Shown here one piece after another: positions 872-60,948 of a DNA stretch of 64,000 nucleotides. Below the pieces are notes generated by a model. The model saw only the letters and a program-made list of their open reading frames with translations. It was not told the origin of the DNA and searched no databases. The first letter of the stretch is position 1; each line of letters begins with the position of its first letter. A program made the translations under genes and the position numbers. Source of the DNA: a virus; the IMG/VR virus record IMGVR_UViG_3300025096_000008, positions 1 to 64,000 of that record. One strand, written 5' to 3'.

Positions 872-942
872 GTATAAACAGGAAGATCTTTCGGAGAACA
901 CAGGAGGGATAATCTATTTATGTTATGGAGGAGTTATTTTAA

Positions 943-1230
943 ATGAAAAGTGAAGATCAGACAGAAGCAGTAATAATCTATTCGAGAGAAAGCTGCCCTT
1001 GGTGCAAAAGAGCAAAGCAAATGATGGACTATTGGAGTGTCTTTTACTATGAGGTGGATATAGATAAAACCCCAGATGTAAAGGATGAAATGATAAAAAT
1101 AACAATTGCCGCTGGAGGAGATCCTGGAGAACTTCCTGTGATGGTATACGGAGGCAAGACAATAGTCGGCTTCAAACATCAACAAATGCTAGATTTATTC
1201 CCACTTCTTGATCCTAACGAGAAAGACTAA
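943..1230 (+). CDS. Glutaredoxin/NrdH-like redoxin
   Basis: IIYSRESCPWC motif, later LPV...GGKTIVGF; SD ggagg. Confidence 0.85.
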   Translation: MKSEDQTEAVIIYSRESCPWCKRAKQMMDYWSVFYYEVDIDKTPDVKDEMIKITIAAGGDPGELPVMVYGGKTIVGFKHQQMLDLFPLLDPNEKD

Positions 1231-1243
1231 ACTACTTATGGCT

Positions 1244-1789
1244 ATGAGCAAGGGTCCGAGTTATTTTTACAAAGCCAAAGTTGTCTCTGTTTATGATGGC
1301 GATACATGTAGGGCAGATATAGATGTCGGCTTTGGTATCGTTTTAAAAAATAAAACCATCCGTCTTTCTAACATCGATACTGCCGAAATAAGAAGTGAAG
1401 AAAAAGAATCAGCAATCAAAGCAAGGGACAGGCTTAGAGAACTGGTGTTGGACAAAGAAATAATGCTCCAGACGATGAAAGACAGGACTGGAAAGTATGG
1501 AAGGATTATCGGTGTACTTTATTCTGATGGGAACAACATAAACGATTTGTTGGTAGAGGAAGGCTTGGCTGTAAAGATAGTCAAGAAGTCTCGTCGAAGA
1601 TCAAAGAAACAAACACAGGTAGAGAAAAAGCAGACAACCGAGAACCAAGCTCCTAGGAAGCAGGAAGAGCCAAAAGAAGAAGCCAGATCTTCCGATAAAG
1701 AAAAAAAAGAGCCAAAAGAAAAAGACGTGGCAGTCAAAATTGAAATACCCGAGAATCTCGTTCAAGCAATCTCAGGTTCCTCCGAATAA
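1244..1789 (+). CDS. Thermonuclease (SNase family) with Lys/Glu-rich tail
   Basis: VVSVYDGDT, IRLSNIDTAE, GKYGRIIG and INDLLVEEGLA motifs. Start ATG 1238 or 1244 is preferred over the track TTG 1208. Confidence 0.85.
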   Translation: MSKGPSYFYKAKVVSVYDGDTCRADIDVGFGIVLKNKTIRLSNIDTAEIRSEEKESAIKARDRLRELVLDKEIMLQTMKDRTGKYGRIIGVLYSDGNNINDLLVEEGLAVKIVKKSRRRSKKQTQVEKKQTTENQAPRKQEEPKEEARSSDKEKKEPKEKDVAVKIEIPENLVQAISGSSE

Positions 1790-2005
1790 CAAGCTAAATT
1801 TTTGTTTATGTTGATGAAAAGCGAATACCACCTCGCTATGTGTTATAGTGTTTTTTTACCCAAACTCAAAAAAGAAATAAAACATTTAGCAAAGGTATGG
1901 TATGATATAGCCAATATTGCTGATAAAAGACGATAAACAGAGATTTTCAGGAAACTTACGACTATTTATTTTGTGAAAAGATCTTTTTTATCGGGGAGAT
2001 AATAT

Positions 2006-3073
2006 ATGTCTAATGAAATGTTAAAACAGGCGATTATAGATGCCGAGGCTTTGAAAGAAGTTGCTTTGAAAAATGCTGAAGCTGCTGTGGTAGAGAAATA
2101 CTCTCGGCAGATAAGAGAGGCAGTAGATAATTTGCTGGAACAAGGCGAAGACGAAGAGCTTACCATCGATACAATGGAAGAACCAGCCCCTTCAGGTCTT
2201 GATGACCAACTGCCCTTGGCAGCCACTGACGGAGAGAACCTCTGCCCGTGCCCTGAAGAAGAAGAAACGATTGAGCTTGATTTCGATGACCTACAGAACA
2301 TCATGCAAGCATTAGATTCTGATGATGATGAAGCAAAGATGGCTGGACCGACTCCAGACGAAGTTCTTCCCGACGAGGAAGAGTTAGAGGTTTCGCCGAT
2401 AGCAGAGGATATTGCCGACACTGTAGCGAACATGCTCGATGGTGAAGAACAAGAAGAACAGTCGGACGAAGATGAGATTGTTGAGATTGCCATCGAAGAA
2501 GACGAAGACGAGATTGTTGAGATTGCTTTGGAAGAAGAGTCCGGCAATGATACCAAGGTGGAAGAAAAGAACAAGAAGAATATTGAAACCCTAGAGGAAG
2601 CTGTTGCCTTTTCTCACGATAAGACAAGCACTCTGTTACAAGAAAACGGAAACCTCTCCCAGACGAATTCAAAAATAATCAAAGAAAATAAAGTTCTCAA
2701 AGAGAAGCAAGGAAAGATTCTTGTCGAGAATAAAGATCTAAAGAAACTTATAGGAAAACTTTCCAATACATTAGAGAGCGTAAATCTTTCTAATGCAAAA
2801 CTAATTTATACGAATCAAATTCTAGGTAGCAACTCCTTGAATGAGCGACAAAAAGATAAAATTGTCGAGGCTATTGCCGATGCTGATTCTGTCGAAACAG
2901 CGAAAGCCGTATTTGAAACCCTTCAAAGCGCAGTGGGCGGATCCTCCAGGGGCGAGCCAAAATCACTAAGCGAAGTCGTGTCGAATAACCGGGTGTCGAT
3001 GTTTAGGCGAAAAGAAAAACAAGCGAGCACCAACCCTCATACAGAACGTATGAAAAAGCTCGCTGGCATTTAA
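2006..3073 (+). CDS. Prohead core scaffold protein (gp22-like)
   Basis: Acidic coiled-coil protein directly upstream of the capsid gene; many LxE sites; ends RMKKLAGI; 13-aa internal duplication EDEIVEIA. Confidence 0.75.
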   Translation: MSNEMLKQAIIDAEALKEVALKNAEAAVVEKYSRQIREAVDNLLEQGEDEELTIDTMEEPAPSGLDDQLPLAATDGENLCPCPEEEETIELDFDDLQNIMQALDSDDDEAKMAGPTPDEVLPDEEELEVSPIAEDIADTVANMLDGEEQEEQSDEDEIVEIAIEEDEDEIVEIALEEESGNDTKVEEKNKKNIETLEEAVAFSHDKTSTLLQENGNLSQTNSKIIKENKVLKEKQGKILVENKDLKKLIGKLSNTLESVNLSNAKLIYTNQILGSNSLNERQKDKIVEAIADADSVETAKAVFETLQSAVGGSSRGEPKSLSEVVSNNRVSMFRRKEKQASTNPHTERMKKLAGI

Positions 3074-3094
3074 TCATTTAAGGAGGAAAAACAA

Positions 3095-4777
3095 ATGTCT
3101 ATTTTAGAAAAACTAACTGAAGGCATCGTTAGCCGTGACCTAAGCAAGGAGTCTCACGCCATTGTTAATAAATGGGAAAAGACTGGTCTGCTAGAAGGTC
3201 TTACTAACGATACCAAACGAACCAACATGGCTTGCCTGTTGGAAAACCAAGCTAAGGAACTTCTCCGTGAGTCATCTTCGATGCACACGGGAGATGTGGA
3301 AGGATTCGCCGCTGTTGCGTTTCCAATCGTTCGCCGAGTGTTCGCCGGACTGATTGCCAATGATTTGGTATCTGTTCAGCCTATGAGCCTACCAAGCGGA
3401 CTTATCTTCTTCTTGGACTTTACCAAAGATCGAGCTCGCTTAGGTGATGCCGCTGGAGATTCGGTATATGGCGGCGGAGCCGTTGCTAACCAAATCACTG
3501 GTGGAGTTTCCCTGACTGGCGACGAAGCCGAGAAATCGTTCTACAACTTGAACAACGGCTACTCGTCCCCAACTGGTTCTGATACTGGTGTTAGCATCAG
3601 CCAGATTCTGTCCGGCAACGTCGGCGGAACTACTGATGCCGATGCAGAATTGGAGAAAATTCTACGCTTCGACCCAGACATTGCTTCTGGAACAGCGGCA
3701 ATCGTTGCCAGCGTCGCCATCAACGATCTCGACCAACTTAACCTGGATGACCTTGTTACAGTTACTGTTGATTCGACAATCGTTGGTCGTCAAGCTCGTC
3801 GCTTGACACAACTTAGCGGCACTGCCGGCACTGACTTGCTTCTTGTTGTTGCCGCTTCCGGCACTGAGACGTCACCAAACGAGCTCTCAACGAGTGTAGG
3901 AGCCGCCTTGGACTTTTCATGGGCTCAAGTTGACGACTTTACCACGGGCGGAGCAATCGGCTCAGTCGTGGGGAGAGAAGCATGGGGACTAGAAGGAAAC
4001 GAAAACATTCCAGAAATCGACATCAAGGTTGACAGTGTTGCTGTGACGGCACAAACCAAGAAGTTGAAAGCTAAGTGGACTCCTGAATTGGGTCAAGATT
4101 TGAATGCTTATCACAATCTTGATGCCGAGGTAGAGCTCACCAGCATCCTTTCTGAGCAAATCGCTCTTGAGATCGACCAAGAAATCTTGGAAGATCTTAT
4201 CAAAGGTGCTACGGCTGGTAAACTTTTCTGGTCTCGCCGACCAGGCAAGTTCCTGAACCGAGATACCGGTGCCCCAATTAGCACGAGTGCTAATGAAGAA
4301 ATGTTGGGTGCTGATTTCACGGGAACCGTTTCGGAATGGTATGAAACCCTTCTCGAAACAATCAATGATGTTTCGGCTCAAATCCATCGTAAAACATTGC
4401 GGGGTGGAGCTAACTTCTTGGTCTGCGGACCAGAGGTTGCTAACATCCTTGAGTTTACCGCTGGCTTTAAAGCAACTGTAACTCATGATGATGATCGTGG
4501 TAATGCTGGTGCTACCAATGTTGGAAGCATCTCTAAGAAATGGGATGTGTATGTTGACCCATACTTCCCACGCAATGTCGTTTTGGTCGGACGCAAAGGA
4601 AACTCATTCCTCGAAAGCGGATATGTGTATGCTCCTTATGTGCCCCTCCAAACCACTCCTACCATTTTTGGTACTGAAGACTTCGTGCCTCGCAAGGGTG
4701 TGATGACTCGGTATGCTAAGAAAATGGTACGACCGGACATGTACGGACTAGTTGTTGTGACAGATCTTCTCGGATAA
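3095..4777 (+). CDS. Major capsid protein, T4 gp23 family
   Basis: LLENQ, PIVRRVF, VSVQPMSLPSGLIF, KLKAKWTPELGQDL, YAPYVPL and GVMTRY motifs. Confidence 0.97.
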   Translation: MSILEKLTEGIVSRDLSKESHAIVNKWEKTGLLEGLTNDTKRTNMACLLENQAKELLRESSSMHTGDVEGFAAVAFPIVRRVFAGLIANDLVSVQPMSLPSGLIFFLDFTKDRARLGDAAGDSVYGGGAVANQITGGVSLTGDEAEKSFYNLNNGYSSPTGSDTGVSISQILSGNVGGTTDADAELEKILRFDPDIASGTAAIVASVAINDLDQLNLDDLVTVTVDSTIVGRQARRLTQLSGTAGTDLLLVVAASGTETSPNELSTSVGAALDFSWAQVDDFTTGGAIGSVVGREAWGLEGNENIPEIDIKVDSVAVTAQTKKLKAKWTPELGQDLNAYHNLDAEVELTSILSEQIALEIDQEILEDLIKGATAGKLFWSRRPGKFLNRDTGAPISTSANEEMLGADFTGTVSEWYETLLETINDVSAQIHRKTLRGGANFLVCGPEVANILEFTAGFKATVTHDDDRGNAGATNVGSISKKWDVYVDPYFPRNVVLVGRKGNSFLESGYVYAPYVPLQTTPTIFGTEDFVPRKGVMTRYAKKMVRPDMYGLVVVTDLLG

Positions 4778-4805
4778 GAACTGCCTTAACAGCCTAAAAA
4801 GAATT

Positions 4806-4835
4806 AGAGCCTCTTCGGGGGCTCTTTTCTTTTTT
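4806..4835 (+). terminator. Rho-independent terminator after capsid gene
   Basis: agagcctc-ttcg-ggggctct followed by a T-rich run. Confidence 0.9.
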
Positions 4836-4880
4836 GCTCAAACTACTTATAAAGGCAACTAGCAGCGGAGGAAAAATATT

Positions 4881-6146
4881 GTGGCAGTACCTACACTAAC
4901 ACCAACTTCAACGGTCAGTGCTATAACACTCCCAGCAACAGGATCTAGGACTGATGTGACGGCATCGTTGCCTATTGGGGTATATACGGGAGAGCAGTTC
5001 ATCTCTGGTGCTGTCGATCAGGTTTCCTACACATATAGAAAGCTTGGCGGCGATGTTCTCGATATAGAATTGACTACTCGAAATGTCTATGCGGCATACG
5101 AAGAAGCTGTCCTGGAATATTCATATCTTGTAAATATCCATCAAAGCAAGAACACTATTTCAAACTTGATGGGACAAGTAACCGGCACCTTCGATAGCGA
5201 CGGTGAGTTAACCGACGGTAGCTTAAAAACCGAACTGAGTGGAGTTGGGGCAGAGCTTCGATACCCTAGGTTCGATCTAGGGTATGCCAACACAATGGCT
5301 TCTGCTGCTTCGGAAAGAGCTCAAGTTGGTGGCAACTTAACATTCTACTCTGCCTCTATTGATATAACTGATGGTGTTCAAGATTACGATCTACAATCTA
5401 TAGTCTCCTCCAGCGCTGCAGCCGGCGGCGTACCATTTTCCGGCATAGATACTTCCAAGAAGGTAAGAATTCAGAAAGTGTTTTATAAATCTCCAAGAGC
5501 AATGTGGCGATTTTACGGATACTATGGCGGGTTGAATACCATAGGAAACCTCAACACATACGGGCAATACTCGGATGATAGCACTTTCGAAGTGGTACCA
5601 ACCTGGCAAAACAAGCTCCAAGCTATGGCATATGAGGATGCCCTCTCGACACGAACCTCGCATTACTCTTATGAGATAAGGAATAACAAAATAAGGCTAT
5701 ATCCAATTCCAGATAAAGACTGGGTTACAAAAATTTGGTTTGAGTTTACGGTAGACACAGACACAATATTTGACGAAGATGGTGTTGATACTGGCAGAGC
5801 AGGTGTCAACAATATGAACACTCTGCCGTTTGCAAACATTCCTTTCACCAACATAAACTCGATTGGGAAACAGTGGATAAGAAGATTCGCCCTCTCTCTG
5901 TGTAAAGAGATGCTGGGACTTATAAGAAATAAGTTCACGACAATCCCAATCCCAGGCGAATCAGTAACTCTAAATGGAGATGCCCTATTGTCTCAAGCGA
6001 AAGAGGAGCAAAGCCTATTGAGGGAAGAGCTTAAGACCGTATTAGATGAGATGACATATGATAAGCTCGTGGAGCAAGATGCTGAAATCATGGAAGCAAC
6101 TGCAAACTTACAGGCAAAAATTCCAATGAACATTTTCACAGGGTGA
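4881..6146 (+). CDS. Neck protein, gp13-like head-tail adaptor
   Basis: RKLGGDVLDIEL at the N-terminus and WIRRFALSLCKEMLGLIRNKF...VTLNGDALL at the C-terminus; follows the capsid gene. Confidence 0.85.
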   Translation: MAVPTLTPTSTVSAITLPATGSRTDVTASLPIGVYTGEQFISGAVDQVSYTYRKLGGDVLDIELTTRNVYAAYEEAVLEYSYLVNIHQSKNTISNLMGQVTGTFDSDGELTDGSLKTELSGVGAELRYPRFDLGYANTMASAASERAQVGGNLTFYSASIDITDGVQDYDLQSIVSSSAAAGGVPFSGIDTSKKVRIQKVFYKSPRAMWRFYGYYGGLNTIGNLNTYGQYSDDSTFEVVPTWQNKLQAMAYEDALSTRTSHYSYEIRNNKIRLYPIPDKDWVTKIWFEFTVDTDTIFDEDGVDTGRAGVNNMNTLPFANIPFTNINSIGKQWIRRFALSLCKEMLGLIRNKFTTIPIPGESVTLNGDALLSQAKEEQSLLREELKTVLDEMTYDKLVEQDAEIMEATANLQAKIPMNIFTG

Positions 6147-6160
6147 GAGGAGAATAGACA

Positions 6161-6967
6161 GTGGCTGAAAACATTACTTGGAAGCAACCCGCTAATCCTC
6201 CTCCTCCTATGTTTCTTGGGGAGAAAGAAAGAAACTTAGTTAAGCAGGTTAACGATGAGCTAATCGAGCGAGTTATCGGGCAGGGGATTATCTATTATCC
6301 TGTTAGCCTAAAACACACTAACTACCACTCTCTATATGGCGAAGCGATAAACAAGAGCTTTCTTACACCAATAAGAGTAAATGCTTTGATAAACTGGGAA
6401 GGCTCTCAGACAAGCACGACAGGCTTCGGAATAGATAGAAGATCCAGCATCACAATCAACTTCCACAAAAGAAGGTTGACGGAGGATCAAGATCTACAAG
6501 TTCAAGAGGGAGATTTTGTTCTTTACGGCAACTTGTTTTATGAAATAGTAACACTAGCACAGCCCAGAGAACTTTTCGGTCAAGTTGATCACAAGATGGA
6601 GATTGCAGCAAAGTGTATTCGAGCAAGGGATGGCATGTTCGAAGAGTCTAGTATGCCAGAAGTTACCATAGAGAAGTATAAGGCAACGGCTACAGAAACT
6701 TCTTATGTTTATTTAACCACTCCTGCCTCTTCTTCTTCACCAACTGTATCCGCTTCAGCGGCAGTTCCCACTTATTCCGGCGCCGACTCTGGCTCTTTGG
6801 ATTACCAAATTTTGGAAGATTTCGATTCTAATCCGTGTGACTACTCAGGATATCACTTCTACCTCACTGCAGCACCTGTGCCTCCTATAGCCTCTTTTGC
6901 CATGGCGAACAAGTGGTATTGGAACGAAAACTGTGTTTGGCACCCAAGCCCATTTATGGTACCTTGA
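6161..6967 (+). CDS. Neck/head-completion protein, gp14-like, with C-terminal extension
   Basis: HSLYGEA and EGDFVLYG motifs; gene order after gp13; Ser/Thr linker then an extra ~60-aa domain. Confidence 0.75.
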   Translation: MAENITWKQPANPPPPMFLGEKERNLVKQVNDELIERVIGQGIIYYPVSLKHTNYHSLYGEAINKSFLTPIRVNALINWEGSQTSTTGFGIDRRSSITINFHKRRLTEDQDLQVQEGDFVLYGNLFYEIVTLAQPRELFGQVDHKMEIAAKCIRARDGMFEESSMPEVTIEKYKATATETSYVYLTTPASSSSPTVSASAAVPTYSGADSGSLDYQILEDFDSNPCDYSGYHFYLTAAPVPPIASFAMANKWYWNENCVWHPSPFMVP

Positions 6968-6984
6968 TGTACTAGGAAAGACTT

Positions 6985-7821
6985 ATGACGAAAGAAAAGA
7001 TAACGGTATTGAGTCCGTCAAACTTAGAAAACATAGATGGAGCCATGCACGAGTGGGTAGACCAACAGATCAGTGCTTTCGCCACAACTAACCGAGGCTG
7101 GAAAAAGGTACCGGTCATTTGGGTATCGGCAGAAAGAGCATACCAGACAAAGAGAGATAAAGGGCTACGGGATAAGGAGGGTGCTCTCATATACCCTATC
7201 ATAACAGTCGAGAGGATTAGTATGGAAAAAGATCCATCATTCAAAGGATCCTTACAAGCCAACATATTCCCCGTTAACGATTACAGGGGAGGCTCGATAC
7301 CATTAGCCAACACCATAAATCAATCAAAGACCCAGAACTTTCAGAATGCTGACTCAAAGAGAGAGACCGGACAGTTGAATTTTAAAGTAAAGAAGAAGGA
7401 CAATAAGATAGTATATACCCATAAATCGATTCCGATTCCAACATACATTAGTATTATGTATCGAATCAGCTTAAGGGCAGAGTACCAACAACAGATTAAC
7501 GAGATGAACGAACCGTTCATTGTCTCCACTGGAAACATCAGCAGCTTTATTATGAAGAAAGAGGGTCATCGATATGAGGGATTCTTTCAACCATCTTACG
7601 AACAAAATAATAATGCCGGAAGTCTCGACGAGGATGAGAGAATCTATCAGACATCGTTCGATGTAAAAGTGTTGGGATATTTAATCGGCTCCAAAGACAA
7701 TCAAGAGCAGCCCCAAATTGTAGAAAGAGAGAACGCGGTAAAGCTGAAGACACCAAGAGAAAGGGTAATCGTGGGAGAAGATCCAGAACATCCCGATAAT
7801 TGGGGAAAGTATAGGGAATAA
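6985..7821 (+). CDS. Tail sheath stabiliser/terminator, gp15-like
   Basis: Lies between neck and sheath; KVPVIWVSAER, LIYPII and IYQTSFDVKVLGYL resemble the gp15 family. Confidence 0.7.
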   Translation: MTKEKITVLSPSNLENIDGAMHEWVDQQISAFATTNRGWKKVPVIWVSAERAYQTKRDKGLRDKEGALIYPIITVERISMEKDPSFKGSLQANIFPVNDYRGGSIPLANTINQSKTQNFQNADSKRETGQLNFKVKKKDNKIVYTHKSIPIPTYISIMYRISLRAEYQQQINEMNEPFIVSTGNISSFIMKKEGHRYEGFFQPSYEQNNNAGSLDEDERIYQTSFDVKVLGYLIGSKDNQEQPQIVERENAVKLKTPRERVIVGEDPEHPDNWGKYRE

Positions 7822-7930
7822 AAAATAGCATTTAGAGTATTTTAAAACTATTTACAACAGGCTAGATTCACATTTAAAGAAAAATAACGAATGTTTTACT
7901 ATTGTTATTTGTAGAGGAGAGTAAAAGGAT

Positions 7931-10741
7931 ATGTCGGCAAAGAAATTCAAGTTCGTATCACCTGGAGTTTTCGTTGATGAAATTGACAACTCACAGTTAC
8001 CAGAAACACCAGAGGGTGTAGGACCAGTAGTTATAGGAAGGACGGAGAAGGGACCAGCAATGGTGCCTGTCCAAGTTAACTCGTTTTCAGACTTCGTTGA
8101 AACATTTGGTAATCCAGTTTTTGGCGGAGGTGTCCCTGATGCCTGGCGCGCCGGACCCAATTCCACTGCTCCGACCTACGCTTCTTATGCCGCCCAGGCA
8201 TACCTCAGAAATCAAAGCCCCCTGACGGTTGTGAGATTGGCAGGCATCGAAGATGCTAACCCAACAGCAGGCGGTGGTGCCGGCTGGGAAACCAACTCAG
8301 AGCCGATGGATTCAGATGAAGTCAATGGCGGTGCTTACGGTCTTTTCTTGGTGGAGTCTGGCTCGGATCTCACGGCTTTGCCGGGCACTGGCTCGCTGGC
8401 AGCAATCTTCTATTGCTCCGAGGGTGTTGTTGAACTTACGGGTACCTTGGCTGACGGAGACACGACTGCCAGCGGCACGGCTGGACTTTTCTTGTCCGAC
8501 GACACTCCTCACCAATACACGGCACAAGTTCGAGATGCTTCAGGTGTAACTGATAAGGTTGTTTTCAACTTCAACGAAAACAGCAAGCTTTACATCCGAA
8601 ATGTCTTCAACACGAACCCAACATTGGTCAATACCTTTGCTGGCGGGAAGAAATATTTCCTCGGAGAAACCTTCGATAGGAATATTGCTGATAAGCTCGC
8701 TAGCGACACAAAATCTTTCGGTGTCATCTTGGGACTCGCTACATCTGAGTTCACAGCGGATATCCAACAGAACTGGCAAGAGATGCCTCTTTCCGATGCC
8801 TCCACTGGATGGTTCTTTTCTCAAGATTTGGGAGACCAATCATTATTCAATGCTTTGGCGAAACAAAAGCTTTTTAAATTTGAGACACTTTCTGGTGGAG
8901 AGTGGGCTCAAGGCAATCTTAAGATCTCAATCACTAGCATCAAAGCTTCCCCTAACGAGGATCAGCCATACGGCACTTTCTCGGTCCAGGTTCGAAAAGC
9001 AACAGATTCCGATGCTAGAGTCTCTCCAGTAGAGACATTTAGTGATGTAAACCTAAATCCAAATTCCCCAGATTTCATTGCTCGTAGAATCGGCGATTCT
9101 TATCGAGTATGGGACAACGACGACAAGAGATATCAGACTTATGGAAACTATACAAATCAGTCTCGATACATCCGGGTTGTACTGGATTCCTCTGTGGAAG
9201 CCGGCACAACCGATCCTAAATTCTTACCATTTGGAGTATATGGACCAACTAGGTACCAAGCCTTTCAAACAGTGAGCGGCTCAACTGACCCGTTCGACAG
9301 CTATGTTGTCGGCGGCAGCAGTATCCCTCGCTCGTTAGCTGCTGGTTTCGAGAAGGTGAATGTGGGAACACTTGCTCTCACCGCTTCTTTCGAATTCCCT
9401 GAGATTCCGACGAAAACAAACAGCAATGATTCATCACTTATAAATCAGAGAGATGTATACTTTGGAGCAACAACGAATGTCGCCAACAGTAGTCGCCTCC
9501 AGCGGGATATTGTAGACTATGTTCGTCGTAAGCCAGGTGATGCTGATAATCTAGGTGTTACTGGTTCACTGAACTACTCCTGGGTATTCACCCTTGACGA
9601 TGTTTCCGGCTCCAATGCCGATGGCGTCTTGGGAACATGGACATCCGGTTCTCGTGTTTCCGGCTCCTCAATCACGGCTCAGGCAGGAAATACTTACGAG
9701 TCAGTTCTCAATGCTGGGTTTAACAAGTTCACGACAATGCTACAAGGTGGCTTTGAGGGTGTTGATGTTCTCGAACGAGAGCCTTTTGCTAATCGACTAT
9801 TGTTAGACGGAACATCGCCATCTAACTATGCCTATGCTTCTATTGAGCGAGCCATAAATACAGTAGCTGACCCTGATGTGGTTCAGTGTAATATGCTCTC
9901 TATGCCTGGTGTTACCAACGAGGCACTCACGGGCAAGCTTCTTGATGTCGCTGAAACCCGAGGCGATGCCTTGGCGATAGTTGACTTGAAGGGTGGCTAT
10001 GAGCCAGAGACAGAAGCTTCAGCGAGCTTGTCTGCTCGACTAGGCTCTGTATCTGAAACGATCTCAAACCTAAATCGAAGAAACATCAACAATAGCTACG
10101 GATGTGCCTACTATCCTTGGGTTCAAATCACCGATACAGTCACCACAGGAGGCTCTCTATGGGTTCCCCCAAGTGTGGCTGTGCTTGGTACCCTAGCGAG
10201 CAGCCAGGCTGCTAGCGAGCTCTGGTTTGCTCCTGCTGGGTTTACCCGAGGCGGCTTGACGGAAGGTAGTGCCGGCATTCCAGTAACGAATGTTCGACAA
10301 CGATTGACTTCGGACAACCGTGACGATCTTTATACGGCAAACATTAATCCGATTGCCCAGTTCCCAGCAGAAGGAATTGTGATTTTTGGACAGAAGACAC
10401 TCCAAGTGACACCTTCTGCCCTAGACAGAATCAATGTTCGACGAATGCTGATTTATGTTAAACGACAAATCTCTTTCATAGCTTCCAGATTGCTTTTTGA
10501 TCAAAATGTTCAATCAACGTGGGGTCGCTTCTTGGGAGAGGTGAACCCATTCTTAGGAAGTGTCAAGACTCGCTTAGGTCTTATGGACTATAAAGTGATT
10601 CTTGATAACACGACGACAACCCCTGACTTGGTTGATAGAAATATTATGTATGCCAAGATATTGTTGAAGCCAGCAAAGGCACTTGAGTTTATTGCTCTTG
10701 ATTTTGTTGTAACAAGATCTGGTGCTTCTTTTGATGACTAA
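7931..10741 (+). CDS. Contractile tail sheath protein (gp18)
   Basis: VSPGVFVDEID, WFAPAGFTRG, GQKTLQ...DRINVRR and KPAKALEFIALDF motifs. Confidence 0.97.
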   Translation: MSAKKFKFVSPGVFVDEIDNSQLPETPEGVGPVVIGRTEKGPAMVPVQVNSFSDFVETFGNPVFGGGVPDAWRAGPNSTAPTYASYAAQAYLRNQSPLTVVRLAGIEDANPTAGGGAGWETNSEPMDSDEVNGGAYGLFLVESGSDLTALPGTGSLAAIFYCSEGVVELTGTLADGDTTASGTAGLFLSDDTPHQYTAQVRDASGVTDKVVFNFNENSKLYIRNVFNTNPTLVNTFAGGKKYFLGETFDRNIADKLASDTKSFGVILGLATSEFTADIQQNWQEMPLSDASTGWFFSQDLGDQSLFNALAKQKLFKFETLSGGEWAQGNLKISITSIKASPNEDQPYGTFSVQVRKATDSDARVSPVETFSDVNLNPNSPDFIARRIGDSYRVWDNDDKRYQTYGNYTNQSRYIRVVLDSSVEAGTTDPKFLPFGVYGPTRYQAFQTVSGSTDPFDSYVVGGSSIPRSLAAGFEKVNVGTLALTASFEFPEIPTKTNSNDSSLINQRDVYFGATTNVANSSRLQRDIVDYVRRKPGDADNLGVTGSLNYSWVFTLDDVSGSNADGVLGTWTSGSRVSGSSITAQAGNTYESVLNAGFNKFTTMLQGGFEGVDVLEREPFANRLLLDGTSPSNYAYASIERAINTVADPDVVQCNMLSMPGVTNEALTGKLLDVAETRGDALAIVDLKGGYEPETEASASLSARLGSVSETISNLNRRNINNSYGCAYYPWVQITDTVTTGGSLWVPPSVAVLGTLASSQAASELWFAPAGFTRGGLTEGSAGIPVTNVRQRLTSDNRDDLYTANINPIAQFPAEGIVIFGQKTLQVTPSALDRINVRRMLIYVKRQISFIASRLLFDQNVQSTWGRFLGEVNPFLGSVKTRLGLMDYKVILDNTTTTPDLVDRNIMYAKILLKPAKALEFIALDFVVTRSGASFDD

Positions 10742-10790
10742 AAAACAAAGAAATAACTACTTATTTTATAAGACGAGGAGAAAATAAATT

Positions 10791-11345
10791 ATGCCATTCT
10801 GGAGTGACGCAACAATAGCAGACCCTAAGAGACAGCACCGCTGGCTCATCAACATCGGTGCACCCGAGCTCAGCAGTTTCATCACATATGTGTGTAAGTC
10901 TGTAGCGAAACCGAAAGTAACAGTGGCAGAAACGGAGCATAAATTTATTAACCACACCTTCTACTATCCAGGTGGAGTCACTTATGAGCCCATTACGATA
11001 ACACTGGTAGATCCGGCGAACCCTCACTCCTCACAGGCACTTTACGATCTTCTACAGGTATCTGGTTATACACTCCCAGGGAATATCACTCAAGTGAGCC
11101 CAGGCGAGAAAGATATGTCCACGATCAGTAAGAGGCAAGCCATTGGAGCCCTGAGAAGCTGCTATATAAGTCAGCTTGACGGAGACGGCAACGAGATTGA
11201 AAAGCTTACCTTAGAGAATGCTTGGATCAAGAGTGTTGACTTCGGCGGAGATTTGAACTATGAGAACGAAGGGCTTGTTGAGCTTTCTCTTGAGCTTCGC
11301 TTTGATTCCTTTGATCTACAAACTTTCGGTCCATTCGCCTCATAA
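10791..11345 (+). CDS. Tail tube protein (gp19)
   Basis: Follows the sheath; YYPGGVTYEPITITL and AWIKSVDFGGDLNY...ELSLELRFD. Confidence 0.9.
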   Translation: MPFWSDATIADPKRQHRWLINIGAPELSSFITYVCKSVAKPKVTVAETEHKFINHTFYYPGGVTYEPITITLVDPANPHSSQALYDLLQVSGYTLPGNITQVSPGEKDMSTISKRQAIGALRSCYISQLDGDGNEIEKLTLENAWIKSVDFGGDLNYENEGLVELSLELRFDSFDLQTFGPFAS

Positions 11346-12312: not shown

Positions 12313-12472
12313 TTACATGGAGATGGTATATGAACAGTTCTTTGTTCTAAAATACCACGGAGGATGGAGTCTTATTGAGGCTTATAATTTGCCGATACAG
12401 TTGAGAAACTGGTTTGTTGAGAGACTAGCAAAGCAAATAAAGGAAGAGTCAGATTCCATCAAGAAGAAATAA
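12293..12472 (+). CDS. gp51-like chaperone segment, likely reached by +1 frameshift from the upstream ORF
   Basis: +1 frame FFGLTSDY...YHGGWSLIEAYNLPIQLRNWF overlaps the upstream ORF at a T7 run. Confidence 0.65.
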   Translation, partial: FFGLTSDYMEMVYEQFFVLKYHGGWSLIEAYNLPIQLRNWFVERLAKQIKEESDSIKKK

Positions 12473-12494
12473 GGCATCCTAGGGTGCCTTTTTT
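12471..12494 (+). terminator. Rho-independent terminator
   Basis: aaggcatcc-tag-ggtgcctt followed by Ts. Confidence 0.8.
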
Positions 12495-12530
12495 CATGCT
12501 AAAAAACTACTTATTGTGGAGGTTTCCCTT

Positions 12531-15784: not shown

Positions 15785-15838
15785 AGATCACGATAAAAAA
15801 GCTCCACCTTCCTATTTATAATAGAGGAGAAAATCACT

Positions 15839-23354: not shown

Positions 23355-23622
23355 AATTTTTACAGGCTCTTTTAAGAAGAAGAACGACGACATTCGGACT
23401 ATGATTTTTGTAAAGCTGGAAGATCTCCCTTCCAGCTTTTTAAGTTCCAAGATCAAGGATGGATCATCTCAGCGAAAAGTACCAGAAGGGCAAGAGCTCG
23501 TATGGGATGTTTCCGAGTCTGCTTTCCGGACATTCAACTGGAACTCAGCACTGGGAGAAGTAGATGTGAAACTACTGGAAGGAAAGGAAAAAGAAAATTT
23601 TGAGAAAAAGCACTTGACATAA
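23347..23622 (+). CDS. SH3-fold / WYL-like small protein (DUF2693-like)
   Basis: FKKKNDDIRTM...VWDVSESAFRTFNW. Confidence 0.6.
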   Translation: MVKIFTGSFKKKNDDIRTMIFVKLEDLPSSFLSSKIKDGSSQRKVPEGQELVWDVSESAFRTFNWNSALGEVDVKLLEGKEKENFEKKHLT

Positions 23623-23642
23623 GAAAAGTGATCTGATATAAT
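23614..23642 (+). promoter_or_regulatory. sigma70-type promoter for SSB
   Basis: TTGACA-17-TATAAT with an extended TG. Confidence 0.9.
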
Positions 23643-33032: not shown

Positions 33033-33061
33033 GACTACTTATTAGGACTAAGGGAGAGAAA

Positions 33062-38952: not shown

Positions 38953-38967
38953 AAATACTACTTATTT

Positions 38968-40355: not shown

Positions 40356-40453
40356 TAAAAAGGGATTTTTGCCTTTCTGAACACTATTTATAGATGATTT
40401 AAAGTTTCTTTATCGCCACAAAGGCGAATTAATATTCATAGGGAGAGAGAGTT

Positions 40454-41072: not shown

Positions 41073-41101
41073 TTGACAAGCTTGAAAAGAAGTTTTATAA
41101 T
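41073..41101 (+). promoter_or_regulatory. sigma70-type promoter
   Basis: TTGACA-17-TATAAT, followed by CTATTTAT at 41111. Confidence 0.85.
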
Positions 41102-41142
41102 CTTTCTGAACTATTTATTTTGAATATGGGAAGTTATTTATC

Positions 41143-44242: not shown

Positions 44243-44278
44243 CATACTATTTATGGTATCTAGCCAAGAGGATTTTCC

Positions 44279-46078: not shown

Positions 46079-46107
46079 TTGACAGATTAGAGGCAATATG
46101 TTATGAT
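46079..46107 (+). promoter_or_regulatory. sigma70-type promoter for the tRNA
   Basis: TTGACA-17-TATGAT. Confidence 0.85.
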
Positions 46108-46118: not shown

Positions 46119-46193
46119 GGACTTGTAGCTCAGCGGTAGAGCGACCCGCTCATAACGGGTTGGTCGTAGGTTCAAATCCTACCGGGTCCACCA
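46119..46193 (+). tRNA. tRNA with CAU anticodon, most likely tRNA-Ile2 (lysidine)
   Basis: Cloverleaf: GGACTTG/CGGGTCC acceptor stem, ACCCG-CTCATAA-CGGGT anticodon arm, GTAGG-TTCAAAT-CCTAC T arm, encoded CCA; no initiator features. Confidence 0.95.
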
Positions 46194-46775: not shown

Positions 46776-46838
46776 AGCTTTTTAGGAACTAGTTATTTTA
46801 GGGAGAGTAAGCGGAAACAGTGCCTGAAACGAACAAAA

Positions 46839-47062: not shown

Positions 47063-49018
47063 ATGATAATCAGAAAGATATGGATGTTTCTTATAACGAT
47101 GATGGCACTTACGAGTGCATGTAATTGTGACGATGACCTTCTCTCTTTTTCATGTCCAGAGCCTATTCCGTGCCTAAATCTTTCTGACGGTGGTATATAT
47201 GTTTTCGATGACGACATCATTTCCCGAGCAAAGGGTGAGTGCGAACTCGGCAATACCACCTGTGATGCCCTAAACCGACAAATCTGCGTCAACGAGATAA
47301 AGCCCGTTGATGAAGTGTGTGACGGTCTGGATAACGACTGTGACGGCACCATAGACAATGGGCTATCCACTGATGCCGACGGTGATTTGTTCAATGACTA
47401 TTGGTCATGCCTAAAACCTGTTGATTGTGACGACAGCGACCCATACATCCACCCGAATGCCTCTGAGACTTGTGATGGCATTGACAATGACTGCAACGGT
47501 GAGATAGACGAGCTTGGTCCTTATGAGTGCTGGACTGGCGAATCTGACTCCGTTTTCGAAGGAACCCCATGCCAGACTGGGATAGTTTCATGTGTCGCTG
47601 GAGCCTGGACCGGATGTGAAGAACAGGTGTTACCAGCACACGAATTGTGTGATCTTGTTGATAATGATTGTGACGGGGAAGTAGACGAAGACTCTTGGCT
47701 AGAGGGATTTCCTTGCGGTCCAGACACTACTGTCGGGCAATGCTCTTACGGCAGAAATTCGTGTGTTGACGGAGAGCTCCTCTGTATTGATGCCCAGTAT
47801 TCCCAGAACGAAGTATGTGATGATATCGACAATGATTGTGACGGCATCATTGATAACGATTTGGAAAGACTCTGTGAGTCTGAGTGTGGAATGGGCATAG
47901 AGTTCTGCTCCTATGGCTCTTGGGGCGGCTGTACGGCACCATCACCAGGGATAGAATATTGTGATGGTGTTGATAATGACTGTGACGGAGAGGTGGACGA
48001 GAACTGTCCCTGTGTAGAGGGTGATGCCCAGACATGTCAAGAGGATCCTATGATGGATCAATACACGGGTGTTATGATGAGTTGCGGCATCGGAATCCAA
48101 GTATGTGACAACTTCGGAGTGTGGGGAGAGTGCTTTTGGTTTGGTCCATCTGTCGAGGTATGTAACAATTGGGATGACGACTGTGACAACATCATAGACG
48201 GAATGGAAGTCATATGTGGTGTCCAGCCAGAGGAGAATATGGGAGTTGGAGAGTGCAAAGCCGGAGTTACTATTTGTACAGCCGGTGAGTTTGGCGAATG
48301 TGTTGGAGAGATAGTGCCAACAGAGGAAGTGTGTGATGGCTTAGACAACGACTGTGACGGAGAAGTAGACGAAGATCTAAATATCCACGACAGAGTAGAT
48401 ATGGTATTCGCCATTGATATTTCCGGCTCTATGACTTCATACATTATTGCTCTCGCCCAGGGCATCTCGAACTATGTAGCAGACTTCGAAGACACAGAGC
48501 ATCGCTTCGCTCTTGTTCTATTTCCAGACTATCCAGACGGCTTGGGCGGAAATGGGGATCCCTACATTGTTGCAACGGCGCCCCCTCTGGTTGATGTAAA
48601 TACCTTCCTTAATACACTGACATCTATAAGTGCCCAAGGTGGAGGGTACGAACCATCCATAGATGTGATGTATGACCTGGCGGATCCCACCGACCCTGCT
48701 GGTATCGGCTGGAGAGAAGATGCCTACCCTTACATAATCTTGATCAGTGACGAGCCGGCACAGAGCTGGTCCTCACTCCAAGCATCTTCGGTGTATCCGA
48801 GTGCTCACAACTGCCAGATTGGTTCTTGTGAGCCCGGCGACGAGATAGAGACATTTATCATAAACAAGACACAGTTCTTTTTCGGCTTCCATGAGATAAT
48901 TTATGGAGATCCAGACAGATATTATGAAATTTCCCCACCTGACGGAAATCGCTATACCGAAGTCCTAAACGACATATTCGCCAATATCTGTTTATACGAA
49001 GCAGATGGTGGTGCATGA
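47063..49018 (+). CDS. Cys-rich repeat lipoprotein with C-terminal vWA domain
   Basis: Lipobox LTSA-C; seven E.C[DN]..D[ND]DCD...D repeats; MIDAS DISGS, GGYEP and ISDE. Confidence 0.85.
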   Translation: MIIRKIWMFLITMMALTSACNCDDDLLSFSCPEPIPCLNLSDGGIYVFDDDIISRAKGECELGNTTCDALNRQICVNEIKPVDEVCDGLDNDCDGTIDNGLSTDADGDLFNDYWSCLKPVDCDDSDPYIHPNASETCDGIDNDCNGEIDELGPYECWTGESDSVFEGTPCQTGIVSCVAGAWTGCEEQVLPAHELCDLVDNDCDGEVDEDSWLEGFPCGPDTTVGQCSYGRNSCVDGELLCIDAQYSQNEVCDDIDNDCDGIIDNDLERLCESECGMGIEFCSYGSWGGCTAPSPGIEYCDGVDNDCDGEVDENCPCVEGDAQTCQEDPMMDQYTGVMMSCGIGIQVCDNFGVWGECFWFGPSVEVCNNWDDDCDNIIDGMEVICGVQPEENMGVGECKAGVTICTAGEFGECVGEIVPTEEVCDGLDNDCDGEVDEDLNIHDRVDMVFAIDISGSMTSYIIALAQGISNYVADFEDTEHRFALVLFPDYPDGLGGNGDPYIVATAPPLVDVNTFLNTLTSISAQGGGYEPSIDVMYDLADPTDPAGIGWREDAYPYIILISDEPAQSWSSLQASSVYPSAHNCQIGSCEPGDEIETFIINKTQFFFGFHEIIYGDPDRYYEISPPDGNRYTEVLNDIFANICLYEADGGA

Positions 49019-49045
49019 CTCTCGAAGGAGGCACTACTTACTGGT

Positions 49046-51521: not shown

Positions 51522-51580
51522 CCGCCAGTGTTTTTAGGTTGGCTTACTTATAAGATTAAAAGAGAAGAGGAAAAGCTATT

Positions 51581-54642: not shown

Positions 54643-54723
54643 TACTACTTACTTATAGGGGCAAAATTTACTATAGGAGAAATATAAAATGTTATCTTTA
54701 TTAAATTCAGGAAAGTCACAGTT

Positions 54724-59014: not shown

Positions 59015-59020
59015 GATAAT

Positions 59021-59296
59021 ATGAAGCCGATAAAGAAAAGTAAACTAAAGAAATATAAGGGAAGAATCTTAGACCTCCACAAGGTTAGCCATGCTGATGT
59101 TCCGGAGGTGCTATCTGCCTTCCTGTACAAGAGCATAGACAAAAAAAGAATGCCTGTGGAAGTCATTACGGGCAACAGCAGTGCTATGAGGGATGTTGTG
59201 AATAGTGTGGTAGACTACATGGGCTTTATGTCTATTAGACAGCCAGCTACGGACGAGGCGGGCAAGCTTGTCATTGACATAGAAGAGCTGGACTGA
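59021..59296 (+). CDS. Stand-alone Smr-like domain protein
   Basis: LDLHKV...VEVITGNS...GKLVI. Confidence 0.7.
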   Translation: MKPIKKSKLKKYKGRILDLHKVSHADVPEVLSAFLYKSIDKKRMPVEVITGNSSAMRDVVNSVVDYMGFMSIRQPATDEAGKLVIDIEELD

Positions 59297-59419
59297 TGGT
59301 AGTAGAAACATTCGGAATCGTTTTCTTTGTAGGCTATCTGATTCTAGCAGGCTGTGTTGCCTACTATTTGTGGTAGATATAAATCGGGGTTTTGCTGCTT
59401 GAAAGACTATTTATATATT

Positions 59420-59743
59420 ATGAGAATAATAATTGAAGGTAACGGCTCTTTATCAAAGCAGCAGTTACAGAAAATGTCTCCCGAGGAAGTGAAGGCTTAC
59501 TTCTCGTCTATAGAATCAGAGGAAGAGCCCAGGGTAGGTCCACCGCTTAAAGGCTCTCCCGACTTCAAGAACTCCGGCAAAACCGTCCCCAGCAATGAAG
59601 ATGATCGTATCCGCCAAGCCGTCCAGTATGTACTCCAGGATCCATCCGTCATGGACATGATAAAGAAGCACCTTTCTGGTGTGGCTGGAGCATCCCCCTT
59701 GGAACCAACGAAGCCAGGCAGGAAGAAGCCTGCTAGCGAGTAA
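59420..59743 (+). CDS. Hypothetical late protein
   Basis: ATG 5 nt after CTATTTAT. Confidence 0.6.
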   Translation: MRIIIEGNGSLSKQQLQKMSPEEVKAYFSSIESEEEPRVGPPLKGSPDFKNSGKTVPSNEDDRIRQAVQYVLQDPSVMDMIKKHLSGVAGASPLEPTKPGRKKPASE

Positions 59744-59748
59744 GAGCT

Positions 59749-60948
59749 ATGAAGCTATTGTTTGAGAACTGGCGAAGCCACCTAGAAGAAGGAATAAGCG
59801 ATATCGTCTATCACGGCACCAGCCTAGGTAGACTATCGGATATCGCCAAAGGCAACCGACTTATGACATCTGGTGTCTTCGGTGCTGATGCTGAAGAGAT
59901 CATCGGCAAGGGAAAGTTCTACTTTCTCTCTACGGCACGGTCCCCATCAGCCTTCAAGCATGGATATCCTTTGGTCAAGGACGGCAAAACTCGTATCACT
60001 CTAGACGGCAAGAAGATCGGACAGAAGTATTCGGGTGGACCAATAGATTACTGGCGGGATCGAACTAAAGGCGGCAAGTCAGAGATGGAAGATAGGATCA
60101 TAACAGACGATCCTTGGATAGAGAATGCTGCTGATTACATTACAGAGATAGTCGTCTACCTTCCGATCCTCAGAGGAAAGGCAACTGATTCAGACAGCAT
60201 CCTAGGATCAATTGCATCGGACAAGCCGACAAAATATGAATACATTCCCAACCGAGATATTGGATTTGCCGATATCAAAGCTCTAAAAGAGGTAAGCGAT
60301 TTTGCTCAATCCCACGGGATCCCTCTAAAGATAATACCGACAGAAGAAAAAGAAAGTGAGTTCTATATGAACAACCAGCCCTCAGCAGTATCCCACGACG
60401 AATTCGATAAAATGAGAAAAGAGTTAGACATAGACCCAGAGGAAAAAACACATCGTGGGAAGGAGCGAGATGCCTTCCACATAAAGCTAAGGAATGCGTC
60501 ATCCTATTCTCTTCTTCCTCCACTAATGGAACTGACCAAGATGCTGGATGCCGGCAACTTTAACTCATCCTCATCCGAGAAATGGTTTCCAACGAAAGAG
60601 GACATGCTGGAGGTCAAAACAGATTTGTACGAGTGGTCCAAGAAGCCAGACTTTGAGGAGTATCCACTACCAGAGTATGATGAGCCCGAAAAGCGAGAGC
60701 TACGAAGGAAGTTCCTGGAAGGGCAAGTGATAGTTACCAAGGAAGACATCGATGATGTTGAGGAAAGGCTCACTCGGTTTAAAAACGAGGCAGCCAGTGT
60801 GTTCGGTACCGACTTTCTAAGTGCTAGGACAGATCCTCGCCGAAGACCCTTCATTCAATTCTTTACGAAATACATGAGAAGCAAAAAGCTTGAGAATGTC
60901 ACTGAACTAGTCAAGCATCTAGAGCAAGAGCTCAGAAAAACTATTTAG
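59749..60948 (+). CDS. Putative internal head protein with ADP-ribosyltransferase-like domain
   Basis: Begins MKLLFENWRSHLEE; VYHGTS, FLSTARS and EMED. Confidence 0.55.
   Translation: MKLLFENWRSHLEEGISDIVYHGTSLGRLSDIAKGNRLMTSGVFGADAEEIIGKGKFYFLSTARSPSAFKHGYPLVKDGKTRITLDGKKIGQKYSGGPIDYWRDRTKGGKSEMEDRIITDDPWIENAADYITEIVVYLPILRGKATDSDSILGSIASDKPTKYEYIPNRDIGFADIKALKEVSDFAQSHGIPLKIIPTEEKESEFYMNNQPSAVSHDEFDKMRKELDIDPEEKTHRGKERDAFHIKLRNASSYSLLPPLMELTKMLDAGNFNSSSSEKWFPTKEDMLEVKTDLYEWSKKPDFEEYPLPEYDEPEKRELRRKFLEGQVIVTKEDIDDVEERLTRFKNEAASVFGTDFLSARTDPRRRPFIQFFTKYMRSKKLENVTELVKHLEQELRKTI

Follow-up and report, generated by a model that had tools for sequence, protein, structure and literature searches.

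A probable -10-type late promoter box in a far-T4 myovirus contig and its relatives

Introduction

The DNA analysed here, which we call the window, comprises the initial 64,000 nucleotides (nt) of a viral contig of 87,182 bp from IMG/VR (record IMGVR_UViG_3300025096_000008; CheckV completeness about 48%). A short box, CTAYTTA, recurs in this DNA just ahead of genes, among them those for the head and the tail. This raises the questions of whether the box is a promoter, what would read it, and which genes it would control. An earlier examination of the letters without database searches (the sequence-only reading) had taken the box for a novel late promoter, a lone -10 element analogous to the one read by gp55 in phage T4 but of a different specificity.

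We think it likely that the box, in the form aCTA[T/C/a]TTAT, is a -10-type promoter with no -35 element and that it is read by a phage sigma factor related to T4 gp55, the gene for which would presumably lie in the missing half of the genome. The core of the sequence-only reading held: there is no -35 element, the geometry of gene starts fits, the box is concentrated in the structural module, and a gp55-like sigma gene is found in complete relatives. Late timing, a virion role of the accessory units and unqualified novelty were less well supported, and no such sigma gene was found on this contig.

Results

CTAYTTA is concentrated between genes and on the coding strand

The 17 positions that the sequence-only reading had listed were all exact CTAYTTA matches on the + strand, and its two variants, CTAGTTAT at 46789 and TTACTTAT at 51544, were present as well (Table 1). 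Both strands of the window together hold 25 matches, 23 on the + strand and two on the - strand. In 100 shuffled sequences the two strands together had 15.4 ± 4.1 matches (about 7.7 per strand), and a count of 25 never occurred. Six of the + strand copies had not been listed (19521, 28425, 39862, 51491, 58335 and 63877); all six are within genes, at about the level expected by chance (approximately 7-8 per strand).

The same box was recovered when no motif was specified. For all 6-, 7- and 8-mers of the whole 87-kb contig, counts in intergenic DNA were set against those in the coding + strand, and CTATTTAT and CTACTTAT were among the most intergenic-enriched 8-mers (p = 1e-8 and 4e-7, respectively). 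There are 10 intergenic copies of CTATTTAT, three coding copies and one on the - strand; the corresponding numbers for CTACTTAT are seven, one and two. Together, the two 8-mers have 17 intergenic copies, although intergenic DNA is 9% of the contig, compared to four coding copies and three on the - strand. The sole other coherent k-mer signal was GCTTGACA, the sigma-70 -35 box. By strand as well as by location, then, the motif is far from equally common within genes or on the - strand.

The box and its surroundings are conserved in related phages

We identified 513 relatives of the capsid protein in IMG/VR and used the 80 best loci (908 kb, capsid proteins 64-98% identical) to analyze conservation. 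CTAYTTA was found 356 times on the gene strand of these loci and 50 times on the opposite strand. In three complete relatives the ratios of + to - strand copies were 18:1, 19:1 and 25:3. The box is conserved in hundreds of related IMG/VR phages, a check that the sequence-only reading had proposed. Past the stop codon of the capsid gene, 59 of 78 loci have the same footprint, consisting of an intrinsic terminator hairpin with a T-run, aaCTAYTTA, 8-15 nt, GGAGG and a start codon. The flanks of this footprint have diverged beyond recognition and the order around the box has been kept; most of the remaining loci have CTAATTA at the same spot. The site at 4843 is the window's ortholog of this conserved post-capsid box.

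Single-base changes were evaluated in 2.47 Mb of related loci. CTATTTA was enriched 17-fold between genes, and any change at positions 1, 2, 3, 5, 6 or 7 gave an enrichment of 5-fold or less. Position 4 was more tolerant, with 10-fold enrichment for C, 9-fold for A and 5-fold for G. The variant at 46789, which has G at this position (5-fold compared to 17-fold for T), is plausibly a weak member of the set. A logo from 234 non-redundant intergenic sites read A(80%)-C-T-A-[T69/A17/C14]-T-T-A-T(61%)-W. Its information was confined to box positions -1 to +8, and there was less than 0.1 bit per position from -45 to -23, in keeping with the earlier observation that the sites share no -35 element. 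The logo also had an upstream T-run at -17 to -15 with G/C before it, reflecting the frequent upstream terminators, and at +12 it was purine-rich and depleted of C.

A pattern of this kind could in principle arise from composition or chance, in AT-rich intergenic DNA or in the context of stop codons, or it could be a T4-type late box, TATAAATA, in reverse. Intergenic DNA is indeed AT-rich, TATTTATA is the reverse complement of TATAAATA, and a few copies of the box abut or overlap stop codons (60941 and 1232). However, single-base variants with equal AT content were 3- to 20-fold less enriched than the box, and, as described above, no shuffle reached the observed count. Reversed TATAAATA would also not account for a C that never varies, for the A at -1 or for the tolerance of C and A at position 4, and TATAAATA itself has no coding-strand enrichment in the clade (93 copies on the + strand and 174 on the - strand). 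Because all genes are on the + strand, a reversed promoter would yield only antisense RNA. We regard these explanations as largely refuted already and give them almost no weight. The consensus aCTA[T/C/A]TTAT, together with the lack of enrichment of TATAAATA, indicates that the box is a sequence variant and not the T4 box. A Chi-like or packaging signal was also considered and rejected, because the box is concentrated 17-fold between genes and not spread along the strand.

Start codons set an edge 12 nt downstream of the box

We used the positions of start codons to estimate where transcription would begin. In this analysis, 463 non-redundant + strand boxes were surveyed for ATGs that open open reading frames (ORFs) of at least 60 amino acids (aa), and the offset was counted from the C of the box. 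There were 0, 1, 1, 1 and 2 such ATGs at offsets 7 to 11. At offsets 12, 13 and 14 there were 14 (of 16 ATGs present), 8 and 7, and the numbers faded afterwards (Fisher p = 3e-11). A second, broad mode began at offset 22, where a Shine-Dalgarno (SD) sequence fits. For 22 of the 36 close starts there was no alternative start preceded by an SD sequence, and most had an in-frame stop a few codons upstream. The ORFs opened by close starts include some of 1625, 2054 and 2303 aa.

A start codon never precedes the transcription start. The sharp edge at 12 therefore places the transcription start 12-14 nt past the C and the box itself at about -12 to -5, as expected of a -10-type element. A tRNA gene provides a further reference point: tRNA-Ala(GGC), at contig position 81596 and so beyond the window, starts 16 nt past a CTATTTAT box at 81580 (box and gene together span 81580-81671; L087:17580-17671). 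From the start-codon edge and the tRNA offset, we predict that transcription starts 12-14 nt downstream of the C, which agrees with the spacing of about 6 nt past the element in late promoters of the T4 family.

This geometry predicts a class of leaderless mRNAs, with ATG 1244 (box at 1232), ATG 49046 (box at 49034) and ATG 59420 (box at 59407) as start codons. The 226-aa gene behind the box at 38958 probably belongs to the same class, with either ATG 38968 or GTG 38971 as its start codon. The arrangement of box and start at 1232 and 1244 is also kept in a relative (L007). The leaderless start predicted at ATG 59420 would reset the start of ORF 59354-59743. One listed copy, at 60941, is doubtful as a promoter because the SD sequence of the gene at 60959 would lie upstream of the predicted transcription start.

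These distances also bear on the possibility that the box acts in RNA, as a processing site, as a site bound by a repressor or enhancer of translation, or as a stability element in the 5' leader. Such a role would be consistent with the strand specificity of the box, its position between terminator and SD sequence, and the common distance of 24-45 nt to the start codon. In contrast, the full range of distances runs from 10 to more than 100 nt, and the 29 non-redundant ATGs that lie 12-14 nt past the C without an SD sequence, and almost never closer, fit a transcription start and not an operator. The box 16 nt ahead of a tRNA rules out a translational role. Boxes directly behind strong intrinsic terminators (833-865, 4806-4825 and 12471-12490) are where a new transcript has to begin, and we found no Rfam family in the window except one tRNA. 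We consider action in RNA to be very improbable. The proximity to terminators was more limited than had been claimed: in the window the box comes right after a terminator at only three or four sites (914, 4843, 12507 and the variant at 46789), whereas this arrangement is common in relatives.

Two promoter classes serve two classes of genes

The gene content of the contig indicates that its source is a 'far-T4' myovirus, in which virion genes of the T4 type are combined with a replication set of another kind. The G+C content of the window is 44.6%, and the + strand carries essentially all genes. PHROG scans identified a myovirus structural module at 0.9-21 kb. It is followed by a replication and nucleotide block that encodes SSB, a UvsX-like recombinase, a ClpP-like protease, an exonuclease, DnaB, ribonucleotide reductase (RNR), DnaE polymerase III and dUTPase. 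Beyond this block are genes for GroEL, Hsp20, methyltransferases and HNH endonucleases, and numerous small ORFs without assigned function. The capsid protein is weakly similar to those of T4-like phages; the nearest cultured phages by this protein, at 34-37% identity, are Microcystis phage Mel-JY01, Rhodothermus phage RM378 and Flavobacterium phage immuto. There was no nucleotide match of the contig to any INPHARED phage. The DNA runs that contain the sequence are marine, seawater and sediment metagenomes.

The box precedes the capsid unit and the neck, sheath, tube and baseplate genes of the PHROG-assigned module, as the sequence-only reading had it. In the part of the module from 0.9 to 17 kb, eight of the nine gaps of at least 45 nt carry an exact box, and the ninth has CTAGTTAG. 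There were no boxes in the gaps of the replication block (21-33 kb), which have sigma70-type promoters instead. Sites resembling TTGACA-N16-18-TATAAT were found 27 times on the + strand and four times on the - strand. They include the promoters that had been noted for SSB, helicase, dnaE and groEL, and also lie ahead of RNR-adjacent genes and many small genes. In the region from 1 to 20 kb, sigma70-like matches were at chance level (24 compared to 26.4 expected). The relatives have the same division. Intergenic boxes were 7-fold denser around capsid genes (0.337 per kb) than around the gene for the putative sigma factor described below (0.046 per kb); sigma-70-like promoters had the opposite trend (0.008 and 0.030 per kb, respectively). 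For the approximately ten accessory units that the box had been taken to mark as late or virion genes, these data support co-regulation with the structural genes, whereas a virion role is unsupported.

At 41073-41118, both promoter classes are in tandem ahead of the genes at 41143 and 41328. A TTGACA-17-TATGAT promoter at 46079 has its predicted start about 4 nt ahead of the gene for tRNA-Met (46119-46193), in contrast to tRNA-Ala, which is behind a late-type box.

Two genes near the boxes have tentative assignments. The 355-aa gene at 2006 would be the scaffold gene by its position ahead of the capsid gene, and the 955-aa gene at 12917 may encode the tape measure; neither has a family hit. 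A 651-aa protein (47063-49018, + strand) has five MopE-type putative metal-binding repeats (PF11617, E = 2e-31), which is unusual for a phage, and has no PHROG match. A 391-aa ORF with a TTG start (21033-22208, + strand) matches DNA-polymerase families (phrog_17 and phrog_2573) only in residues 245-367; located at the junction of the structural and replication blocks, it may be a polymerase fragment or an accessory domain.

Table 1. Boxes, sigma70-type promoter sites and selected genes in the window. Offsets are counted from the C of the box.
Feature	Coordinates	Strand	Context
Box CTATTTAT	914..921	+	ATG 943 at offset 29 with SD sequence; thioredoxin-like gene, 95 aa; strong terminator 833-865 upstream
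Box CTACTTAT	1232..1239	+	ATG 1244 exactly 12 nt past C, no SD sequence; endonuclease gene, 181 aa, predicted leaderless
Box CTATTTAT	1962..1969	+	Ahead of 355-aa gene at 2006, then capsid gene
Major capsid (head) gene, gp23-like	3095-4777	+	PHROG
Box CTACTTAT	4843..4850	+	Directly past capsid-gene terminator 4806-4825; ahead of neck/adaptor-like gene
Neck/adaptor-like gene	start 4881	+	PHROG
Box CTATTTAC	7848..7855	+	Ahead of tail sheath gene
Tail sheath gene	start 7931	+	PHROG
Box CTACTTAT	10757..10764	+	Ahead of tail tube gene
Tail tube gene	start 10791	+	PHROG
Box CTACTTAT	12507..12514	+	Past terminator 12471-12490; ahead of 117-aa gene 12531 and 955-aa gene 12917
Box CTATTTAT	15812..15819	+	Ahead of 315-aa gene 15839 and baseplate-wedge-like gene
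Baseplate-wedge-like gene	start 16809	+	PHROG; baseplate parts among module hits
TTGACA-17-TATAAT promoter	23614..23642	+	Ahead of SSB
Sigma70-type site	27393		Helicase
Sigma70-type site	30690		
Box CTACTTAT	33035..33042	+	Ahead of 215-aa gene 33062 (phrog_30877; weak likeness to S-adenosylmethionine (SAM)-methyltransferase)
Sigma70-type site	33742		dnaE
Box CTACTTAT	38958..38965	+	ATG 38968 at offset 10, GTG 38971 at offset 13; 226-aa gene
78-aa protein (mini sigma-4)	40119-40355	+	Cys-rich N-terminus and sigma-70 region 4.2 helix-turn-helix (HTH; residues 41-71); no region 2
Box CTATTTAT	40384..40391	+	Just past mini sigma-4 gene; ahead of 184-aa gene 40454
Sigma70-type site	41073		Perfect TTGACA-17-TATAAT
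Box CTATTTAT	41111..41118	+	In tandem, 9 nt behind promoter at 41073; ahead of genes 41143 and 41328
Sigma70-type site	42616		groEL
Box CTATTTAT	44247..44254	+	Past groEL; ahead of 93-aa gene 44279
Sigma70-type site	46079		tRNA-Met
Variant CTAGTTAT	46789..46796	+	Past weak terminator
Sigma70-type site	46986		
Box CTACTTAC	49034..49041	+	ATG 49046 exactly 12 nt past C; 92-aa gene, predicted leaderless
Variant TTACTTAT	51544		
Box CTACTTAC	54645..54652	+	Overlapped by TTACTTAT at 54649; ahead of 89-aa gene 54724
Box CTATTTAT	59407..59414	+	ATG 59420 at offset 13; in-frame stop 72 nt upstream; 107-aa gene, predicted leaderless
Box CTATTTAG	60941..60948	+	Overlaps stop codon of gene 59749-60948
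Sigma70-type site	62667		

A gp55-like protein of relatives is the candidate reader

The T4 gp55 family corresponds to phrog_234. A six-frame search of a 132-kb relative (capsid protein 67% identical) with this profile identified a 230-aa ORF, P0001 (E = 1.2e-5; 1.2e-4 by hmmscan, covering profile positions 18-161 of 181). There are at least 598 relatives of P0001 in IMG/VR. Three of the genomes that encode one are 186-190 kb long and 100% complete according to CheckV, one of them with direct terminal repeats, and have the capsid gene at 69-70% identity. All three complete relatives examined, like the 132-kb relative, thus have the gp55-like gene. A search for a gp55-like sigma gene elsewhere in the genome, which the sequence-only reading had recommended, therefore succeeded in complete relatives but not on this contig, which is only about half complete.

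Comparisons of profiles and of predicted structures point in the same direction. When an alignment of 18 members of the P0001 family was compared with seven diverse gp55 proteins, the hhalign probability was 81% (E = 1.2e-5), and the 153 matched columns cover almost all of gp55. With T4 gp55 as the only gp55 sequence, the hhalign probability was 0.6%, which is not significant. In the register of the family alignment, the segment LDKFDPEKGSKAFSYFS is placed on gp55 LHNFDETKYKNPHAYIT. Residues F86, Y97, T99 and H95 of T4 gp55 belong to the pocket that holds the flipped promoter bases (PMC7892883). At these positions in the weak hhalign alignment, the P0001 family keeps F86 and Y97 and has S in place of T99 and F in place of H95; this retention of pocket residues is only suggestive. 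The AlphaFold (AF2) model of P0001 had a pLDDT of 75.6. Its top structural match by VIA-align was 7d7c_F, T4 gp55 in an RNA polymerase (RNAP) open complex (Z 10.9, root-mean-square deviation 4.6, 119 of 137 residues), and the other top rows were all sigma region-2 domains (Z 8-10.7). Almost all of the top 50 Foldseek matches were sigma factors, and the Pfam family Sigma70_r2 had sub-threshold hits exactly on the P0001 orthologs.

P0001 is approximately 45 residues longer than gp55 (about 185 aa), which has no region-4 domain. About 65 residues at its C-terminus are extra, and its last 95 residues are modelled with confidence (pLDDT 90) as a four-helix HTH-like domain. We dropped the label of sigma region 4 for this domain, since it had no significant PDB match, Foldseek E values were greater than 1, and Pfam gave nothing.

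We infer that this sigma factor reads the box, that the genes behind the box are late, and that the phage from which the contig derives has the sigma gene as well. Several results weigh against this reading. We found no phrog_234 match on the 87-kb contig or in the closest relatives searched. With the sigma gene not on a contig that is about 48% complete, the connection to the source phage is by clade homology, that is, through members with capsid proteins 67-70% identical. A tblastn search of all contig proteins against 80 sigma-gene neighbourhoods gave essentially nothing, and there was no synteny; this is consistent with a sigma gene in the missing genome half and is no proof of it. No RNA runs containing positions 900-10899 of the window were found. 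The homology between P0001 and gp55 is remote, with the link drawn from the PHROG profile, profile-profile and fold comparisons only, and a Z of 10.9 is moderate for a helical protein. The Foldseek matches had E values of at least 0.07. A PDB sequence-profile search with P0001 recovered no sigma factor and only an irrelevant EF-hand protein (E = 0.15), and Pfam found nothing relevant on the P0001 protein. The sigma factor has an extra C-terminal HTH-like domain, yet the promoter has no conserved upstream element. Among five genomes searched, complete relatives included, neither a gp45-type clamp (phrog_223, for which the control was silent too) nor the DnaN N-domain was found. The T4 activation mechanism, in which the clamp acts as an enhancer, is therefore not simply transferable. 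A search of the contig with phrog_12791 also gave nothing, and its control was likewise silent. No T7-like RNAP scored above the cut-off.

The gene directly downstream of the sigma gene in relatives (L091-L170, at approximately 10690-10720) encodes a protein of about 94-99 aa with no family hit. In 22 of the 52 full-length loci a box lies ahead of this gene and places its ATG at offset 12-15. We predict leaderless late expression of the gene, coupled to the sigma gene; its product may be a co-factor.

Two of the distant cultured phages have both a related protein and a related box. Immuto and Mel-JY01, which also have the gp23-like capsid protein in common, encode gp55-like homologs of 29-33% identity that are annotated as hypothetical. 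In immuto (L177), TATATTTAT lies ahead of structural genes (4618, 7669 and 9665), with four copies on the + strand and none on the - strand in 13.6 kb, three of them behind terminators. In Mel-JY01 (L176), ATATTTAT lies ahead of structural genes (4730 and 7661). This sister form of the box has A or T instead of C at the first position, and the hosts belong to other phyla. That a related box accompanies a gp55-like protein across host phyla favours a phage-borne reader.

A small sigma-like protein is conserved in the clade

The window does encode one sigma-like protein, the 78-aa mini sigma-4. It scored 35.5 bits against Pfam PF04545 (cut-off 24.1), and all 43 of its PDB sequence hits were sigma region 4. 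Orthologs of 83-117 aa were present in four of four relatives examined. A sigma-70-like promoter match at 40016 lies 74 nt upstream of the gene, and the late box at 40384 is just downstream of it. The protein may be a gp33-like flap binder, a competitor for the -35 box or an anti-sigma-like player in the switch from early to late transcription, or it may be unrelated. One complete 186-kb relative has, in addition, a canonical sigma-70-family gene (G008:C1:10020-10697; 258 aa; Sigma70_r2 E = 2.7e-12, r4 E = 3.8e-5) that was not found in the other four genomes.

These proteins bring up a different reader, either a host alternative sigma factor or a host sigma-70 remodelled by the phage, for example by displacement of region 4 by the mini-protein, which would make RNAP independent of the -35 box. 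Without a gp55-like gene on the contig, with a stand-alone region-4 protein conserved here and in the relatives examined, and with an additional canonical sigma gene in one relative, such a reader has some appeal, the more so as the association of the gp55-like gene with the box is one of co-occurrence only. However, the extra canonical sigma is in one of five genomes, whereas every complete genome and approximately 600 contigs have the gp55-like gene. The box (TAYTTA) lacks the T at the last position of the sigma-70 -10 hexamer, and the early promoters of this genome follow the textbook TTGACA/TATAAT pattern. To our knowledge, the box matches no host alternative-sigma consensus. A related box, TATTTAT, is kept in the distant cultured relatives that have a gp55-like gene, even though their hosts belong to different phyla. 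We judge a host-borne reader to be unlikely.

A more tentative idea, which we would not expect to be correct but which is worth stating, combines the two phage proteins in a split, clamp-free late sigma. CTAYTTAT would be recognised by the gp55-like region-2 protein, which has an HTH-like domain of its own at the C-terminus, and the 78-aa region-4.2 mini-protein would occupy the beta-flap or the -35 boxes and so switch RNAP off the TTGACA promoters. If true, this would be an evolutionary intermediate between two-domain sigma factors and the gp55/gp33/gp45 machinery of T4, coupled to leaderless late mRNAs.

Comparison with known late promoters

Late promoters of T4 have TATAAATA at -13 to -6 and are read by gp55 with the co-activator gp33 and the sliding clamp gp45 (PMC2988020, PMC7892883). 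Like them, the box described here is a short, AT-rich, -10-type element without a -35 element, positioned upstream of genes for the head and the tail and often just past a terminator. Both appear to have a small phage sigma factor dedicated to them, here in the relatives, with 7d7c_F as the best structural match to the modelled region-2-like domain. TAYTTAT and TATAAAT of T4 have five of seven positions in common. In contrast to T4, TT takes the place of the central AA, or C that of A-12 if the other register is chosen, and the clade does not use TATAAATA itself. The sigma factor of the clade is also unlike gp55 in its 230 aa with a predicted extra C-terminal HTH-like domain, replication depends on DnaE and DnaB here and on gp43 and gp41 in T4, and many late mRNAs of the clade are predicted to be leaderless.

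The closest published sequence that we found is the putative late box of Aeromonas phage Aeh1, CTAAATA, which begins at -12, has C as a strong determinant and goes with a diverged gp55 (Nolan et al. 2006, PMC1524935). The two boxes share the leading CTA, the final TA and the inferred register with C at -12, and in both cases the box was predicted from sequences upstream of late genes and the gp55 is divergent. The difference is at positions 4-5, where Aeh1 has AA and this clade has YT. Furthermore, Aeh1 is a true member of the T4 family (Straboviridae) with the T4 replication and gp33/gp45 set, whereas this clade has mainly virion genes in common with T4. The box can be aligned to that of T4 in two ways, either with C at -12 as in Aeh1 or with the invariant As at -12 and -8 as the flipped bases of T4. 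The claim of novelty is therefore qualified: the sequence does differ from the T4 box, but the published Aeh1 box is only two positions away.

Late boxes of T4-like cyanophages have been quoted as NATATAATA (PMC3184105). These are also gp55-type, -10-only late elements in marine myoviruses, but with a different box sequence and with a gp55 recognisable by plain BLAST to T4 gp55, which the sigma factor of this clade is not. According to a paper on ViI-like phage, the late box of that phage was unknown in 2011. In the literature searched, there was no paper that links CTATTTA or CTACTTA to a phage late promoter, no promoter analysis of immuto or Mel-JY01, and none on this box or sigma factor for the clade.

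Discussion

The scheme that we propose has two phases. In the first, the host sigma-70 holoenzyme would read early and replication genes from TTGACA-N17-TATAAT promoters. In the second, the newly made phage sigma factor (the P0001 family, related to gp55) would direct host core RNAP to the boxes, and transcription would restart there, often just behind terminators. The head, neck, sheath, tube and baseplate units, approximately ten scattered small units and a tRNA would then form one co-regulated, presumably late class. Where an ATG lies 12-14 nt past the C, the mRNA would be leaderless; otherwise it would have a leader of about 10-40 nt with an SD sequence.

The advance is incremental and introduces no new principle. 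Its use lies in a simple rule, aCTAYTTAT with a transcription start 12-14 nt downstream, that would find late transcription units across a widespread group of marine myoviruses, represented in IMG/VR by at least 500 capsid-bearing and approximately 600 sigma-bearing contigs and without a close cultured member (nearest capsid protein 34-37% identical). The same rule would correct the starts of leaderless genes, such as those at 1244, 49046 and 59420, that are misplaced by gene callers based on SD sequences. It also provides a candidate function, that of a gp55-like late sigma factor, for hypothetical proteins of immuto and Mel-JY01. Finally, the finding would extend the sequence range of gp55-type promoters: TATAAATA, CTAAATA and CTAYTTA would make up a natural series on how a region-2-only sigma factor changes its specificity.

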